NCBI GenBank assembly: GCA_027310965.1
Contig: DAICZW010000003.1
Coordinates: 1 to 38,644 of the forward strand
Reading direction: 5' to 3'
From: a bacterium
GTDB taxonomy: Bacteria > Patescibacteriota > Minisyncoccia > UBA6257 > 2-01-FULL-56-20
DNA: 38,644 bases
The notes below the pieces were generated by a model. The model had not been told where the DNA came from and ran no database searches. It worked only from the letters and a program-made list of their open reading frames with translations. Positions within the stretch are counted from its first letter, which is position 1. The number at the start of each line of letters is the position of its first letter. This document shows positions 15,605-38,644 of the stretch, one piece after another. A program made the position numbers and the translations under genes.

Positions 15605-15643
15605 TGGTTATTTTTATTCGACGCGCATACGCACGTGAATTTC

Positions 15644-15813
15644 ATAGGACTTACGCGTTTGAAAAAATATTTTAAAAACGTCAGATGTTTCAAACCGCAA
15701 GGGCCTGGCCAATTACTTCGTTATTTTCCTGCGGTTTTCATCGCCGTAGTCGGACTACGGCTCCCAAAATCCTCGGAAAATGCCTCGTACTTGGCCAAGC
15801 GCATAAGTCCTAT
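15644..15813 (+). repeat. ~170-nt terminally inverted, hairpin-rich element (MITE-like), copy A
   Basis: The termini ATAGGACTTACGCG ... GCGCATAAGTCCTAT are inverted repeats. The central palindrome is CCGTAGTCGGACTACGG. The copy aligns along its length with copies at 18327-18492 and 29423-29587. Confidence 0.8.
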
Positions 15814-15851
15814 TTCAATAACCATAGCAAGGAGCGGATTAAATATATCTT

Positions 15852-15905
15852 AAAGGACTCCGCATTTTAATTCGGAAAGGAGGGGCTCTCTTTACTCCTT
15901 TCCGA
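15852..15905. other. perfect 21-bp stem hairpin (12-nt loop)
   Basis: GCATTTTAATTCGGAAAGGAG - gggctctcttta - CTCCTTTCCGAATTAAAATGC. Confidence 0.8.
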
Positions 15906-16035
15906 ATTAAAATGCTCCGTCTAGTGCGGAAACGAGGGACGGGCTTCCTTAAAAGTCCCTCGCAAGCGATAAAGCTTCGTCCGGGGCGGAAACGAAGTAT
16001 CGCATCAAGTTCCATTAATGTAATGAGAATTCGAT

Positions 16036-16070
16036 TCAAAAAACAGGCCGGCAAAAATTGCCGGCCTGTT
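16036..16070 (-). terminator. intrinsic terminator (minus strand), probable end of the ndk transcript
   Basis: 13-bp stem AACAGGCCGGCAA/TTGCCGGCCTGTT with a 3-nt loop, followed on the minus strand by TTTTTT. Confidence 0.65.
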
Positions 16071-16080
16071 GGCAGCGATA

Positions 16081-16112
16081 AGGAAGTAAACGCGTCCGCG
16101 CGTTTACTTCCT
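16081..16112. other. perfect 14-bp stem hairpin with tetraloop
   Basis: AGGAAGTAAACGCG-tccg-CGCGTTTACTTCCT. No T-run on either side. Confidence 0.7.
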
Positions 16113-16213
16113 CCAGACGAACCGACGGATGAAACAAAGTTTCATAAAATTTCCGAACAACCCGCGAACACTGCCTAAAAAAATCGTTTTTCGGAATGAG
16201 CTCCAAAAAAAAT

Positions 16214-18323: not shown

Positions 18324-18329
18324 TTTATA
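18324..18329 (-). promoter_or_regulatory. -10-like TATAAA, 6 nt before the aspS start, straddling the terminus of element copy B
   Basis: The minus strand reads GTCCTATAAA-attgtc-ATG. Confidence 0.3.
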
Positions 18330-18492
18330 GGACTTACGCACTTGTGCCGAGTACGAGGCATTTTCCGATTATTTTCCGAGACGTAGTCCGACTACGGCGA
18401 TGAAAATAACCGGAAAATAACGAAGGAATCGGCCAAGCCGTTTCGGTTTGATATATTTTCTTATGATTTTTTTTCAAATGCGTATGTCCTAT
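18327..18492 (-). repeat. ~170-nt terminally inverted element, copy B (inverted relative to A and C)
   Basis: ATAGGACTTACGCAC ... GCGTATGTCCTAT. Its reverse complement aligns with copies A and C. It fills the aspS-mgtC divergent spacer. Confidence 0.8.
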
Positions 18493-19000: not shown

Positions 19001-19107
19001 AAAACGCGCCAGGTGGCCGCAAGCGTCCTTGTTTCATTAAACCATCCCTGATGGACCGGCCGGAATTCCTGCTTTTATAAAAACTGTTTTCGAGGCGGGT
19101 TCTATAC

Positions 19108-19113
19108 TATAAT
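19108..19113 (+). promoter_or_regulatory. consensus -10 TATAAT, 6 nt before ATG 19120 (leaderless geometry)
   Basis: TATAAT-agagca-ATG. Confidence 0.4.
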
Positions 19114-19119
19114 AGAGCA

Positions 19120-26466: not shown

Positions 26467-27513
26467 ATGAGAAAACTCACGCAATCGCAAAAAGACGAAA
26501 TGCGCGCGCGGCTGCTTGATATAATGGAGCACCGCCTGCCTCCGCTCAGGACGATCCTGACGCCCGACAGCACGAAAGAGGAACCGTGGTTCCGCGAATC
26601 GGGTATTGAAAAAATACTCAAAAAATATGCGTTTTTCGGAGCCGAGATGCGGGCGCATAACGGCAAAAGCGCGCCCGCGTTCATGGCGTGGCTTATGGAC
26701 GAAAAAGCGGGAAAATTCAACAAGGACATTATGGTCATCGGCGCGACATCGGGCAATTGGGGAATGGCATCAGGTCTTATTGCGCCGATGTTTGACGTCA
26801 AAGGATTTTCCGCCGTGATCGAAAGAACGGTTCCAAAAGGAAAGCAAAATCAGCTCATCGCTGCCGGCGCGGAAATCATCTATGCGCCCGACGGCGTCTC
26901 ATCCATCGAACACGCGCAGGCGCTCGCCGAAAAATATCCGGAACAATATCATTTCATCAACCAATATATTCACGAAGGAAGCGTTCTCGGCCATAAGTGG
27001 CCGATGGATCACATTGCCCGCGAACTGGCGCGGCTCGGCGAAACGCCGTCGATCTTCGCCGCGACGACCGGCACCTGTTCGACTATCATGGCGGCAAAAC
27101 GTTATTTGAAAAGCGGATTCCCGCAGATGAAAATACTGGGCGTGGCATCGATGTCAAACAATGAAAAAGTGCACGGAAGCCGGTCGCCGGAAGGACTCGC
27201 CGAACTGAAAAAATTTCCCGGATCGTTCCAATACGAGGACATCGTCGACTTTCCGCTTATGACCGGCATCACGAAGCGGGAGGCCTACGTCATGAGCGCC
27301 GAATTCTACCAGCAATATTACCATTCACTGGGACCGACCTCGATGCTGCTCGAAGCAGGAACGTATCGCTTTTTAAAAGATCATTGGGAACGCCACGGGA
27401 ATTTCGACGCGCTTAAAAACAAAAACGGTGAAATCGTCATGGTTTCGTTTTTTATGGATATGCATCTCCCCTACCTTGACGATCCCGACGTTCTCGCGGC
27501 ATTCGCCAGTTAG
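26467..27513 (+). CDS. diverged PLP-dependent enzyme of the CysK/Trp-synthase-beta (PALP) fold
   Basis: GATSGNWGMASGLIA corresponds to the TSGNTG motif, and TTGTCSTIMAAKRYLK sits where the phosphate loop is expected. The Lys region reads HNGKSAP. Confidence 0.6.
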   Translation: MRKLTQSQKDEMRARLLDIMEHRLPPLRTILTPDSTKEEPWFRESGIEKILKKYAFFGAEMRAHNGKSAPAFMAWLMDEKAGKFNKDIMVIGATSGNWGMASGLIAPMFDVKGFSAVIERTVPKGKQNQLIAAGAEIIYAPDGVSSIEHAQALAEKYPEQYHFINQYIHEGSVLGHKWPMDHIARELARLGETPSIFAATTGTCSTIMAAKRYLKSGFPQMKILGVASMSNNEKVHGSRSPEGLAELKKFPGSFQYEDIVDFPLMTGITKREAYVMSAEFYQQYYHSLGPTSMLLEAGTYRFLKDHWERHGNFDALKNKNGEIVMVSFFMDMHLPYLDDPDVLAAFAS

Positions 27514-27631
27514 AAAAAGAAGAGATAACTCATTACTTATAATTAAGCATTGCATTCCCTCCGTCGTCCCCTCACACTGCCTCCCTTTTTTTCCATCTTT
27601 TTCTTAATCGCTCATTGTTTTTCCTTTCGGG

Positions 27632-27764
27632 TCTGTCATCTCGGAATTTTGAGGCTTTGCGAAAAATATCCGAGATCCAGGATGAACCCTCTTCATTATT
27701 CAATTCAAATTAATCCTGGATTCCAGATAAACACTCGAAAACGCGCGTTTTCCGAAATGACAGA
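27632..27764. repeat. 133-nt element bounded by 15-nt inverted repeats, with three internal hairpins
   Basis: TCTGTCATCTCGGAA (27632-27646) pairs with TTCCGAAATGACAGA (27750-27764), 14 of 15. Internal pairs are ATCTCGGA/TCCGAGAT, ATCCAGGAT/ATCCTGGAT and GAAAACGC|GCGTTTTC. Confidence 0.65.
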
Positions 27765-27803
27765 AAGAGAATAATGTTAATGAACATCATCGCTGTTTCT
27801 TAA

Positions 27804-27835
27804 AGCGTGAATCCTCGCCCAGGTCGAGAACAATG
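27804..27835 (-). repeat. REP-like short hairpin element
   Basis: The plus strand reads AGCGTGAATCCTCGCccaggtCGAGAACAATG, the same flanks as the copy at 6204-6236. Confidence 0.55.
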
Positions 27836-27968
27836 AAATGAACTGGCGCATCGAATCAATATATGCTATTCTATAAATAGAATTTGGGTGCGGGAATTCT
27901 GGAAAATTTCGTCTTTTTTAGACGGATTCCGGCCAGTTCTTTAACAACTTAATAAGGAGGTGAGAAAA

Positions 27969-28010
27969 ATGAAACAGAAGCGGATAAGACCGCCGAAAAA
28001 TCCATTTTAA
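27969..28010 (+). CDS. mini-ORF 1 (13 codons, MKQKRIRPPKNPF) behind a perfect Shine-Dalgarno
   Basis: TAAGGAGGTGA (27953-27963) is an 11-nt complement of the canonical 16S 3' tail. There are 8 nt from GGAGG to the ATG. Confidence 0.4.
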   Translation: MKQKRIRPPKNPF

Positions 28011-28120
28011 GGGAAAAGAAGTCAGTGTTACAATGTAAAAACGCCTCGCACTTAGGCGTGCGGCTGGGAAATTCTCCTATTTAATGATTTTTAAAAAAAT
28101 TTAAAAAGGAGGTGTTTACC

Positions 28121-28150
28121 ATGAGAGGTTTAGATGAAAGAGAATTATAA
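28121..28150 (+). CDS. mini-ORF 2 (9 codons, MRGLDEREL) behind a strong Shine-Dalgarno
   Basis: AAGGAGGTG (28106-28114) has the same 8-nt spacing to the ATG. The stop codon is embedded in the 18-nt palindrome AGAGAATTA|TAATTCTCT (28139-28156). Confidence 0.35.
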   Translation: MRGLDEREL

Positions 28151-28168
28151 TTCTCTTTCCAAAACATA

Positions 28169-28207
28169 ACGACACTTCACAATGAAGCGTCGTTTTTTAT
28201 TTTTTTA
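28169..28207 (+). terminator. intrinsic terminator closing the mini-ORF unit
   Basis: Interrupted stem ACGAC-a-CTTCA / TGAAG-c-GTCGT is followed by TTTTTTATTTTTTT. Confidence 0.6.
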
Positions 28208-28235
28208 ATAACAGCATCAAAAACCGCCGTCAAAA

Positions 28236-29285
28236 TCATCCTGATGCATGCGGTTCCGGTTCACGGCCGGAAAGCAACGGATAAATATCCAACAGCGCAA
28301 AGAAAAATGCCAGCGCCAGCGGGCCGATAAGGAATCCGATAAGGCCAAACACGCTGATGCCGCCCAGTACGGAAAGCAGGATCAGAAACGGATGGGCGTT
28401 CAGGCCGCGGCGCTTGAGTTGCGGCGAAAGAAGATTATCGACGCCGTTCATGGAAACGACGATCCACCAGACGAACAACCCGATGCCGGCGATGATATGG
28501 CCGGTCGCAAAAAGATAGACGATGGCGGGAATATCCACGATTGAAGTTCCCACCATCGGGATGAGCGCGGCAACAACGGCAAGCGATCCCCAGAACGCCG
28601 CGTTCGGGATGCCGAATATCCAAAAACCGGCGATGGCCTCGACGCCATGAATCAGGGCGATCGCGAGCGATCCGCCAACCACCGAATAGATCGCCCGCTC
28701 CATCCGGTCGATCACGCGTTTTGAATAGCGCTGCTCAAGCGGAATAAGCGATGCGATTTTATCGCGAAGCGCATTGCCGTCCGTAAGAAGATAAAACATT
28801 CCGAACAGGCTCAGGAATAACACGAGCGCGAACTGCGCAAGACCGCCGACGAACGGCAGCAGATTCTGCACAACCCAGCCCAGCGCCATGCTGAGATAAT
28901 TCGTGATGTCTATCTGCGGGAAATCAAAACCGCTGAAATGCCGCGCGAGAAAACCGTTCACGATCGCGCCAAGATGCACTTCATTGCCGCCCGCAAACCA
29001 TCCGTAGAGATGCATCGCCTGCCCAAAAATGAGCGTCGCAAGAAAACTGAACGGCACCAGCACGATAAGGATAACGGTAAGCACCGTGATAAGCGCCGCA
29101 AGCCAGTCATAACGGACCAGTTTACGAAGACCGCGATACAACGGATTGAAAACGACGGCAAAGACGATTGCGAAAACGACCACCGAAAGGTATGGCAGGA
29201 AAATATAAACGACAAGCGCGGCCGACGCGAGGAAGAGCGCGACGAGAAAATGATTCCCGAATTGCTTCGGATCCTTCGGTTCCAT
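28236..29285 (-). CDS. AI-2E (PerM/UPF0118) family transporter
   Basis: ~8 TM helices with LIPMVGTSIVDIPAIVYL-type motifs. Start at ATG 29283-29285. Confidence 0.75.
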   Translation of the reverse strand: MEPKDPKQFGNHFLVALFLASAALVVYIFLPYLSVVVFAIVFAVVFNPLYRGLRKLVRYDWLAALITVLTVILIVLVPFSFLATLIFGQAMHLYGWFAGGNEVHLGAIVNGFLARHFSGFDFPQIDITNYLSMALGWVVQNLLPFVGGLAQFALVLFLSLFGMFYLLTDGNALRDKIASLIPLEQRYSKRVIDRMERAIYSVVGGSLAIALIHGVEAIAGFWIFGIPNAAFWGSLAVVAALIPMVGTSIVDIPAIVYLFATGHIIAGIGLFVWWIVVSMNGVDNLLSPQLKRRGLNAHPFLILLSVLGGISVFGLIGFLIGPLALAFFFALLDIYPLLSGREPEPHASG

Positions 29286-29291
29286 ACAACT

Positions 29292-29297
29292 ATTATA
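29292..29297 (-). promoter_or_regulatory. consensus -10 TATAAT, 6 nt before the AI-2E start (leaderless geometry)
   Basis: The minus strand reads TATAAT-agttgt-ATG. Confidence 0.4.
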
Positions 29298-29422
29298 GCA
29301 CATTCCGCCGCCGTCGCGCGGCTCCTTAAACGCGAAGAACGCAAAAAAAGAATTCCGAAAAACTTGAAAAACAATCGTGTGTACGGTACCATCAACCCAT
29401 TCAGCAAAAAACGGTAAAAAAA

Positions 29423-29587
29423 ATAGGACCTACGCATTTGAAAAAAATATAAGAAAATATCTTAAACCGCAGCGGACAAGGCCCGTCCCTTCGTTATTTT
29501 CCGATTATTTTCATCGCCGCAGCCGGACTACATCCCGGAAAATAACCGGAAAATGCCCCGTACCCGGCGCACGTGCGTACGTCCTAA
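29423..29587 (+). repeat. ~170-nt terminally inverted element, copy C
   Basis: ATAGGACCTACGCATTTGAAAAAAA ... CACGTGCGTACGTCCTAA. It is collinear with copy A and ends 10 nt before the tig ATG. Confidence 0.8.
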
Positions 29588-30964: not shown

Positions 30965-32188
30965 TTAGTCCTTGATGCAACGGGCAGAAAACCCGTAGGC
31001 GCGGTAATCGTAATTCGCGGGGACCACGAAGCTCGAGTGGAAGGCGAAGTTGTAGGCGTTCGTGCCGTCGATGGAAGACGACCAGTAGTAGCCGCTCGCG
31101 CCCTGACCAGCAAACAAAGCGTCGGAGGGATCGCGGAGACCGGCATCGGTGAGTTTGAGGGTTGTGTTGTACAAAGCCGTATCGCATCCCGAGGAGCAGG
31201 AAGCAAGGCCGACGGCGCTCACCCAATTGCTCCATTGCGTCTGAGTTGGGATGCTCCATCCGATCGGGCAGGGATTGTTGATGGCGGTGCTGGTACCCTG
31301 CCAGAGGTTGTCATTCTGGGGGGAACGCCAGTCATAAGGGGAATTGGGGGCTTCGATGAAGTCGGCATTGCCGGGAACATCGGTGCTACTGAGGGTGGTT
31401 GTTGCGGTGCTGGTCGTTATCTGATGGCCGTCCGTCAGGCGTCCCCATTGGTAGAGCCATCCATAGGCGGAGGAATCGGTGACGGATTGTGCGATGTTGG
31501 CGGTGCCGAGATTACTGGCGAGCCAGCAATTGCCGTCCTCGCCAATGACGGTATGGTAGATGGTGGTGTCGGGAGCAAGGCCGGTGACGGTACTTTCGCC
31601 GCAGACAAAGATCGGCGATCCCGCGCCTACGGTAAAGGGAGATTGCGCTTGGAATTTCTGCGATTCCGCGTTGGCGAAGACCTCCCAATTGGTGCCGCCG
31701 GTCACATAGGTATAATAGAGGTTCGAGGAGGATTGATTCACGGGATCCACGGGAAGGGAACCCAGCAGGGAGCCGAACGATGCCTTCGTGAAATTGACAG
31801 GAATCCAGCCGGTGCCGTCGACATGCGTATAGGTGGAAGATGCCGCGCAATGAAAGGATCCTCCCGAGGGGAAGCCCAGTCCCGAACAGTCGGTGCCGGC
31901 GGTCGTCGTCGCCGTCGGATCGGGAATGGAGAGATAGGTGACGGACGAAGAGCCGAGGGAGAATCCTATGAATCCTCCTGTGTCCGCGACATAGGCATTG
32001 AGGGCGGTCGTGAGGGCGCTCAGATCGGAAAGACGGTTGCTGTCCCTGCTTTGTTTCAGGAGTTCGGAGGGATTCAGGACCATAACGACCGCCACCATGA
32101 GGACGGCGATGATGGCGATCACGACGAGAAGCTCTATGAGGGTGAAGGCGGAACGGGATGCTTTGTTTGTTGTTCTTTTCGTCTTCAT
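30965..32188 (-). CDS. type IV pilin-like protein with large C-terminal FISUMP (Fibrobacter succinogenes major paralogous, TIGR02145-like) domain
   Basis: Prepilin N-terminus MKTKRTTNKASRSA|FTLIELLVVIAIIAVLMV. C-terminal motifs are GNCWLASNLG, GWLYQWGR, CPIGWSIPT, GYYWSSS and YGFSARCIKD. Confidence 0.85.
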   Translation of the reverse strand: MKTKRTTNKASRSAFTLIELLVVIAIIAVLMVAVVMVLNPSELLKQSRDSNRLSDLSALTTALNAYVADTGGFIGFSLGSSSVTYLSIPDPTATTTAGTDCSGLGFPSGGSFHCAASSTYTHVDGTGWIPVNFTKASFGSLLGSLPVDPVNQSSSNLYYTYVTGGTNWEVFANAESQKFQAQSPFTVGAGSPIFVCGESTVTGLAPDTTIYHTVIGEDGNCWLASNLGTANIAQSVTDSSAYGWLYQWGRLTDGHQITTSTATTTLSSTDVPGNADFIEAPNSPYDWRSPQNDNLWQGTSTAINNPCPIGWSIPTQTQWSNWVSAVGLASCSSGCDTALYNTTLKLTDAGLRDPSDALFAGQGASGYYWSSSIDGTNAYNFAFHSSFVVPANYDYRAYGFSARCIKD

Positions 32189-34257: not shown

Positions 34258-34294
34258 ACTTTCTTATTATTTTTTTTCAAATGCGTAAGTCCTA
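34258..34294 (-). repeat. solo left-end fragment of the ~170-nt element (copy D)
   Basis: The minus strand reads ATAGGACTTACGCATTTGAAAAAAAATAATAAGAAA, matching the first ~37 nt of copies A, B and C. It ends 2 nt from the stop of the 99-aa gene. Confidence 0.7.
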
Positions 34295-34296
34295 TT

Positions 34297-34596
34297 TTAT
34301 TGCGGAGGAATGAACGGATTACTGCGGCCGGTCGAGGACGGAACCGTCGAAGACGGAACATATTGCTTCAAAGATTGGAAAAGCGGGTTCTGTGTCACCG
34401 CCGATGCATGGATCGTGATTCCGGCAAGAGAAGTGGTCGATGCGAAATTCGCGGAAGGCGCAACGATAACCGATTCGGGTGCCGCGAAAAAAAGATAATA
34501 AACCGCCCCGACCCCGACTGCGATAAACACAAGCCATCCTATAACGCTCATAATGCTCCCGCTGCTGTTTTTTTCTTCTTCAATGACAATAGCCAT
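34297..34596 (-). CDS. small single-pass membrane protein in the pilus operon (function unknown)
   Basis: 99 aa with TM helix VIGWLVFIAVGVGAVYYLFF. It sits between the pilO-like gene and pilB. Confidence 0.6.
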   Translation of the reverse strand: MAIVIEEEKNSSGSIMSVIGWLVFIAVGVGAVYYLFFAAPESVIVAPSANFASTTSLAGITIHASAVTQNPLFQSLKQYVPSSTVPSSTGRSNPFIPPQ

Positions 34597-35886: not shown

Positions 35887-35967
35887 AGAATTATATTTTG
35901 GTGTTCCGGCGTCGTAATTGCCGCAATGAAAAAATGAACACTGCAATATTATAACATTATAATCTTT
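35887..35967 (-). repeat. IG-1 spacer element, copy h (more diverged)
   Basis: TTATATTTTGGTGTTCCGGCGTCGTAATTGCCGCAATG ... AACACTGCAATATTATAACATTATAATC. Confidence 0.55.
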
Positions 35968-38519: not shown

Positions 38520-38591
38520 GCCCTCGTCGTTCAACGGATAGGACGCAAGATTGCGGATCCTGTAATCGAGGTTCGATTCCTCGCGGGGGCA
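38520..38591 (+). tRNA. tRNA-Arg (anticodon GCG as read; one A-C mismatch in the anticodon stem)
   Basis: GCCCTCG-TC-GTTC-AACGGATA-GGAC-G-CAAGA-TTGCGGA-TCCTG-TAAT-CGAGG-TTCGATT-CCTCG-CGGGGGC-A. An A20-type D-loop is present. No CCA is encoded. Confidence 0.75.
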
Positions 38592-38644
38592 CAAATGGTT
38601 TATAATAAACGGACACTCTTTTCTCGATGTCCCAGCCCATCAAC

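Follow-up and report, generated by a model that had tools for sequence, protein, structure and literature searches.

The window, that is, the whole 38,644-nt stretch of DNA that was analysed, contains a 722-nt gene-free region (27514-28235) separating the gene for a PLP-dependent enzyme (PALP) from the convergent gene for an AI-2E-family transporter (Table 1). The preliminary description had put these gene-free surroundings at 720 nt and had stated that no gene follows the unit on its own strand, the next one being convergent; both statements were borne out, the AI-2E gene lying on the minus strand. No credible ORF was detected in the spacer on either strand, and none of its six-frame stop-free segments matched Pfam, by which a pseudogene remnant was ruled out. 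The GC content of the spacer (0.37) was typical of intergenic DNA in this genome. Two modules, each with an SD sequence and a mini-ORF, occupy its right half, and all the elements reported earlier for both of them were found where they had been placed. In the left half (27625-27770), a long irregular hairpin was predicted (-41.5 kcal/mol, z = -3.0), the arms of which (27632-27646 and 27750-27764) are 93% complementary.

Table 1 Features of the spacer, its flanks and a neighbouring contig. Coordinates refer to the window unless a contig is named.
Feature	Coordinates	Strand or module	Basis or remark
PLP-dependent enzyme (PALP) gene	26467-27513	+	left flank of spacer
Promoter-like element of module 1: TGCTATTCT (27864-27872), TATAAAT (27872-27878) and palindrome	27864-27883	+	putative
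Palindrome ATTCTAT-AA-ATAGAAT, 7-bp arms	27868-27883	module 1	sequence
GGGAATTCTGG	27892-27902	module 1	sequence
Leader hairpin, ~20 bp	27892-27941	+	MFE = centroid, -17.7 kcal/mol, z = -1.9
SD1 TAAGGAGGTGA	27953-27963	+	unstructured stretch
Mini-ORF1, 13 codons + TAA, MKQKRIRPPKNPF	27969-28010	+	sequence
Breakpoint	28017/28018		L002 identical to window until 28017
Extended -10-like TGTTACAAT, before module 2	28026-28034	+	sequence; putative function
Hairpin ACGCCT-CGCACTT-AGGCGT	28041-28059		TTTTT next on minus strand
AU-rich hairpin, CUCCU (28074-28078) paired with SD2	28065-28121	+	-13.5 kcal/mol, z = -1.3, weak
GGGAAATTCTCC	28066-28077	module 2	sequence
SD2 AAGGAGGTG	28106-28114	+	sequence
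Mini-ORF2, 9 codons + TAA, MRGLDEREL	28121-28150	+	sequence
Perfect 24-nt palindrome GAAAGAGAATTA/TAATTCTCTTTC	28136-28159		ORF2 stop at apex
Intrinsic terminator, 12-bp stem AACGACACTTCA/TGAAGCGTCGTT (28168-28194), then TTTTTTATTTTTTT	28168-28207	+	weakly bidirectional
AI-2E-family transporter gene	28236-29285	-	right flank, convergent
Three consecutive SD-led hypothetical protein genes	L050 (GCA_027308915 contig 14) 5280-8144	-

The exact 9-mer AAGGAGGTG was found at only two sites in the 38.6-kb window, 27954 and 28106, both on the plus strand and 152 nt apart, and at both it is followed by 6 nt and then ATG. When the pattern AAGGAGGTGNNNNNNATG was compared with 100 dinucleotide-preserving shuffles of the window, there were two matches against 0.00 expected, and the two SD-ATG signals are thus real and non-random. 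The variant pattern with N8 after the full 9-mer had no match in the window; therefore, the gap of 8 nt reported earlier holds if it is counted from the GGAGG core, whereas from the end of AAGGAGGTG it is 6 nt in both modules. Comparison of the SD regions of modules 1 and 2 revealed 17 identical positions out of 20, and 22 out of 30 when the spacer and ATGA were included. The leader boxes 'GGGAATTCT' (GGGAAWTTCT), which had also been described as duplicates, share a weak 9-nt similarity that does not exceed chance level, and they have different pairing partners. The real duplicate between the modules is the SD region and not the GGGAAWTTCT box.

None of the 35 genes of the window carries GGAG or GAGG at positions -20 to -4, and several have TGnTATAAT directly before the ATG, which suggests that these genes may be expressed from leaderless mRNAs. 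In several genes, the -10 boxes of the TGnTATAAT type end 6-8 nt before the ATG (e.g., 29286-29300, 19100-19119, and 35947-35960); the AI-2E gene, for example, has gtgctataatagttgt and then ATG. Upstream of the PALP genes of relatives, GAGAGGTGA was found. The genome had been described as one that avoids SDs, and this is correct for the window, where the modules are the only SD-ATG pairs, but not for the genome as a whole, in which three neighbouring accessory genes have strong SDs. These adjacent genes, located ~5-7.5 kb to the left of the window, carry GAAAGGAGG followed after 4-7 nt by ATG; the hypothetical proteins that they encode begin with MKKIFFLLLAITLAL..., MKGKFIFLVIAMFIAF..., and MKTYEKAIITLLGIIAASLFV..., have signal-peptide or transmembrane-like N-termini, and their genes show a native-like base composition. 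The strong SDs in front of them indicate that SDs are in use in this genome, and since SD-led accessory genes occur in the same genome, the modules fit an existing class of accessory envelope-gene leaders. The sequences suggest two initiation modes within one CPR genome; the assignment to the CPR follows from the PALP homologues, which bear the name Candidatus Paceibacterota.

Module 1 is preceded by a promoter-like element, for which the palindrome containing TATAAAT had been proposed as the promoter. This is plausible; however, TGCTATTCT fits the promoters of the genome better (compare TCAATATGCTATACT upstream of the GAPDH gene), and both TGCTATTCT and the extended -10-like TGTTACAAT in front of module 2 resemble the recurrent TGCTATAMT elements upstream of the genes of this genome. 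A generic sigma-70 scan did not flag the element of module 1, and a promoter function of 27864-27883 is plausible from its sequence. When folding of the leader was predicted, the CGTCT/AGACG hairpin of the preliminary description was present, but as part of the larger 20-bp hairpin. The region of SD1 and ORF1 (27946-28040) folded no better than expected (z = +0.3), that is, it is unstructured, so that SD1 is predicted to be accessible. SD2, on the other hand, is predicted to be sequestered in the weak AU-rich hairpin. Between the two, the hairpin at 28041-28059 is terminator-like for transcription coming from the AI-2E gene.

The stop codon of ORF2 is buried in a palindrome, as had been noted, although this is a perfect 24-mer (28136-28159) and not an 18-mer (28139-28156). 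The 13-mer GAAAGAGAATWAT occurs three times, at 27763 (plus strand, to 27775), 28136 (plus), and 28147 (minus), all of them in the spacer, against 0.16 copies expected in the window. An invertible segment between the copies at 27763 and 28147 was considered and rejected, as the contig ends of the strains do not coincide with these repeats. The intrinsic terminator reported after ORF2 was confirmed, with its stem at 28168-28194 and a T run to 28207: a Rho-independent terminator being a GC-containing stem-loop directly before a U tract on the transcribed strand, 28168-28207 has this organization on the plus strand. No antiterminator alternative to the 28168-28194 stem appeared in the predicted folds. 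The two 3' hairpins together were very stable (z = -5.3), and the minus strand as a whole gave z = -5.4.

A homology and synteny search for the unit in relatives returned no counterpart, the flanking proteins being 67-70% identical and the loci amounting to ~400 kb. The relative loci were taken from a PALP contig search, from PALP protein homologues and their contigs, and from an AI-2E metagenome scan (33 loci). In relatives with a PALP of 67-70% identity (L013 and L015), the next gene begins within ~50 nt, and in those with an AI-2E of 70% identity (L016 and L017), other genes follow after short intergenic regions; in none of these four are PALP and AI-2E adjacent. Neither blastn of the spacer nor an nhmmer profile of the SD regions gave a match in the ~400 kb of loci. 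A conserved ORF1 or ORF2 peptide, or critical codons of either, was likewise not found in the loci of the nearest relatives or in the ~400 kb, where no region is homologous. The Rfam scan of the leaders recovered no family at gathering thresholds or at E <= 10; with Rfam 15, three tRNAs were the only matches in the window that reached the gathering threshold, and the best sub-threshold scores in 27450-28300 were at most 22 bits against thresholds of at least 45, mostly on the terminator hairpins. ARAGORN detected no tmRNA or tRNA in the spacer. A distant blastn search against phages and plasmids gave no match, and exact-pattern scans of viral contigs gave none either; with these negative results and the native-like GC content, a mobile or foreign origin was rejected. 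Judged from the loci searched, the unit is apparently species-specific.

Same-species data came from the MAGs GCA_027308905, 915, 945, and 955 and the Logan assemblies of SRR9320195-98, which carry the flanking genes. Where the spacer is present in these strains, it is identical except for one SNP (28024 A>C), located 2 nt upstream of the extended -10-like TGTTACAAT. The strains differ by 1 SNP in ~13 kb; their identity thus reflects recency and is uninformative on selection. Three of the four MAGs break or diverge within the 722-nt spacer: 955 at 27876/27880, 945 at 27988 and 28214, and 905, which diverges at 28017. Logan contigs end in the spacer at 27537, 28063, 28079, and 28214. With contigs of ~3-28 kb, such clustering is, by a rough estimate, unlikely to be due to chance. 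A unit of 138 nt would be bounded on one side by the contig ends at 27876/27880 and on the other by the divergence at 28017. Neither module had a second copy in ~53 kb of this genome (the window and ~14 kb of flanks) or in the rest of the ~400 kb of loci searched.

Several other unstable or repetitive places were observed in the window. A dispersed intergenic repeat of ~130 nt occurs at 29423-29552, 18362-18492, 15644-15758, and 34260-34298, with 74-92% identity between copies (29423-29552 is 86% identical to 18362-18492 and 74% to 15644-15758), often between divergent genes. Its core CAAATGCGTAWGTCCTAT is present in six copies against 0.04 expected, among them 15796-15813 and 18327-18344. Copies abut start codons, as in ...GTCCT ATG at 18491, and the other end reaches the ATG of the trigger-factor gene (29553). 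Several assemblies have contig ends within the repeat (29462-29517), which may be a mobile promoter/leader cassette or a regulator-binding module. A 609-nt gene-free spacer at 15605-16213 contains a long hairpin with perfect pairing (TTTTAATTCGGAAAGGAG...CTCCTTTCCGAATTAAAA, ~15860-15915), where CTCCTT is the partner of an SD-like AAGGAG, together with repeated units of the GCGGAAACGA type and a GC-rich hairpin at ~16047-16072. Contigs also break at 31323-31403, within the gene of a pilin-like protein (30965-32188, minus strand) with N_methyl and Fib_succ_major domains, whose divergence between strains is far above that of its neighbours; in strain 945 (L005), it is 97% identical overall with one segment of 82% and indels, which fits a hypervariable surface protein. 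At the right end, the alignment of the window with contig 24 of GCA_027308915 (L052) stops at 38596, 4 nt after tRNA-Arg (38520-38592); both sequences continue beyond this point, suggesting strain-specific DNA (38597-38644) downstream of the tRNA and possibly an integration site.

The divergent MAG shows module 1 in another context. Its contig DAIDDU010000034 (L002, MAG GCA_027308905) matches the window at 100% identity for 4551 nt and departs from it after 28017, 7 nt past the stop codon of ORF1; 246 nt unrelated to the window then follow to the contig end, and no homology remained between this tail and the window 3' of 28017. The tail is an open frame of 102 stop-free codons with a TTG start 17 nt after the ORF1 stop and GAGG 5 nt upstream of the TTG. 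The ORF matched Pfam BrkB (PF03631) over 29 residues at profile positions 7-34 with 21.3 bits and E = 2.4e-4, below the gathering cut-off of 33.7, and NCBIfam YihY models with E = 0.0015-0.015; all matches were at N-terminal profile positions, 78-102 residues being available before the contig ends. The ORF is therefore probably the N-terminus of a YihY/BrkB-like membrane protein, at a score (E = 2.4e-4) below the gathering level. No homologue of the fragment was found among 5.8 billion proteins, and no copy of a full-length yihY-like protein was present in any locus examined. A frameshift from ORF1 into the yihY-like frame was rejected: a canonical slippery heptamer is lacking, and a shift to +1 at TTT-TAA soon runs into a stop.

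As module 1 runs into a YihY/BrkB-like frame in L002, it would be a 5' leader there and ORF1 its upstream ORF. A short ORF with its own RBS upstream of a YihY/BrkB-like ORF is seen in L002, whereas in the window only module 2 and the terminator follow. The suggestion in the preliminary description of a relic or orphaned leader is supported by these data: the promoter-leader-SD-ORF1 stretch continues into the YihY/BrkB-like ORF in the sister assembly and has no cargo in the window. A cargo-bearing counterpart of module 2 was not found. Either a chimeric assembly or a variant strain could account for the L002 junction. The facts fit a strain-level polymorphism in which 28018-28213 (module 2 and the terminator) alternates with a yihY-like cassette; they also fit an alternative in which module 1 (27880-28017, 138 nt) is a dispersed leader repeat with a second copy before the yihY-like gene, through which L002 was joined.

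We considered the unit to be made up of SD-type 5' leader (uORF) cassettes, orphaned or copied without their gene, of the class that serves accessory envelope genes, in a variable island, and we give this reading an even chance of being right. Given that the unit is species-specific, that it lies at an unstable spot, and that one module runs into a gene in a sister assembly, gene-less leader copies or remnants are most likely. There would be two paralogous cassettes, each with an extended -10-like element, a leader hairpin, AAGGAGGTG, a 6-nt spacer, ATG, and a few codons. With a cargo present, the strong and unstructured SD1 would recruit 30S subunits, the 13-codon upstream ORF1 would then be translated, and the terminating ribosome, whose footprint would cover the weak downstream RBS, would re-initiate on the membrane-protein gene or gate it; through the RPPKNP stretch, this step could respond to the speed of translation. 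In the window, if the promoter-like elements are active, an RNA of ~170-330 nt ending at the terminator would be made, and the tiny ORFs would perhaps be translated by default, as a by-product. The cassettes would then have remained behind when cargo genes were lost or replaced, or they would be gene-less duplicates of a dispersed leader repeat. Transcription and translation of the cassettes, their coupling, and whether the event was a loss, a gain, or a duplication are inferred from the DNA sequence. Signals that are intact and identical in every strain are also expected of a functional small locus, and this speaks against an orphaned leader.

Such a functional locus could consist of genuine micropeptide genes, for example, for a cationic proline-rich 13-mer, expressed from a free-standing bicistronic small transcript with very strong RBSs. 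From SD and spacing through ATG and stop to the terminator, every signal is perfect and intact; the region around SD1 is unstructured, and all strains sampled share the identical sequence. We nevertheless regard this as unlikely: the identity reflects recency, no homologue was found and hence no sign of selection on the peptides, these have 13 and 9 residues without an export signal, ORF1 acts as the upstream ORF of a gene in L002, and SD2 is base-paired in the predicted fold. An attenuator within the window, which had been suggested from the ORF1 peptide, fits poorly, as no gene follows on the same strand and a ribosome on ORF1 would not reach the SD2 hairpin (28065-28121), which begins 55 nt past the ORF1 stop; no alternative structures that would couple the position of such a ribosome to the downstream RBS or terminator were present in the predicted folds. 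It is scarcely credible that the unit is a type I toxin-antitoxin-like locus, another earlier proposal. The unit would share with such loci the strong RBSs of its small ORFs, the sequestration of one SD by a hairpin, and perhaps an antisense partner, but a type I toxin is a small hydrophobic membrane-active peptide, typically of ~20-60 aa with a transmembrane helix, and MKQKRIRPPKNPF and MRGLDEREL are short, charged, strongly hydrophilic peptides of 13 and 9 residues that have no hydrophobic or transmembrane stretch and no family match, which contradicts the proposal.

A regulatory RNA acting in cis or as antisense on the convergent AI-2E gene would account for the strong structure of the 3' part and of the minus strand overall, and the layout is suitable: a plus-strand transcript that runs across 28036-28207 would overlap the AI-2E mRNA at its 3' end or 3' UTR, and there are terminator-like hairpins on both strands, those of AI-2E on the minus strand at 28194-28168 and 28059-28041. 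It would leave two SD-ATG pairs at identical optimal spacing unexplained, AI-2E homologues of 70% identity lack such a downstream element, and no Rfam family matches; we consider it quite unlikely. The core genes of this CPR genome lack SD pairing, and the cassettes might also be a dedicated free-standing ribosome-engaging RNA of ~320 nt, which would sense or titrate SD-competent ribosomes or give rise to a cationic proline-rich peptide; or they might be portable 'expression leaders', moving from locus to locus and picking up envelope-protein genes. This reading as a whole we hold to be decidedly unlikely. Very improbable is an RNA that acts through its SD boxes on the plus strand, or through their complements on the minus strand, by ribosome titration or by pairing with the few SD-led mRNAs. 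The boxes are maximally complementary to the canonical anti-SD, a reference that may differ from the host's own, the minus-strand complements are 11- and 9-nt copies of the canonical 16S 3' tail, and in a genome with SD-poor housekeeping genes, the small set of SD-led envelope genes offers possible targets; yet the optimal distance to the ATG, identical in the two modules, speaks for translation initiation, and there is neither conservation nor a matching family. A mimic or relic of the 16S 3' end (GTGCGGCTGG at 28056 and CTCCT) was rejected, its local alignment score of 20 lying within a window background that reaches 21.

Upstream ORFs that load or gate ribosomes for a downstream gene are known from the proline-codon-rich mgtL/mgtP leaders of Salmonella mgtA/mgtCBR and from the translation-attenuation leaders of erm/cat. 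The present unit resembles them in that its 5' leader holds a short ORF served by a strong RBS of its own, that in L002 the ORF1 stop is followed after 17 nt by the start of a putative membrane-protein gene, whose RBS is weaker, that the ORF1 peptide has an RPP..P stretch, and that SD2 is sequestered in a predicted hairpin. It differs in that the window has no downstream gene, no structure links ORF1 translation to SD2 or the terminator, no conserved peptide was found, and stalling at RPP..P is only putative here. Orphaned promoter-leader remnants and MITE- or REP-like leader cassettes are comparable in several respects: the unit is species-specific and lies at an assembly-break hotspot, its ~140-200 nt are in the size class of the other dispersed leader-type repeat of this genome, and one cassette is joined to different downstream sequence in another assembly. 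Unlike MITE- or REP-like cassettes, however, no second genomic copy and no terminal inverted repeats or target-site duplications were seen, and unlike orphaned remnants, all signals are intact with no sign of decay. A rare strong SD in an SD-poor lineage has been described for rpsU of Flavobacteriia, where the anti-SD is sequestered by bS21/bS18/bS6 (PMC7797042, PMC9976891). There, as here, an extended near-perfect SD stands out where housekeeping genes have no SDs. In the present case, though, the SDs precede tiny ORFs, the host is a Paceibacterota-like CPR bacterium and not a member of Bacteroidia, and other accessory genes have strong SDs too, so that there is no sign of a single autoregulated target.

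Most likely the locus adds one more case to the uORF-bearing SD leaders or orphan leader cassettes and is not a new kind of element. Its weight would be greater if the cassettes proved to be mobile leaders or their RNA to act on ribosomes; at present, there is no support for either. If the orphan-leader reading is right, the spacer would be a small, well-resolved case of strong-SD uORF leaders being attached to, and detached from, accessory envelope genes, in a CPR genome with leaderless or non-SD initiation of its core genes; without adding a new mechanism, it would be useful for gene callers and for thinking on dual initiation modes.
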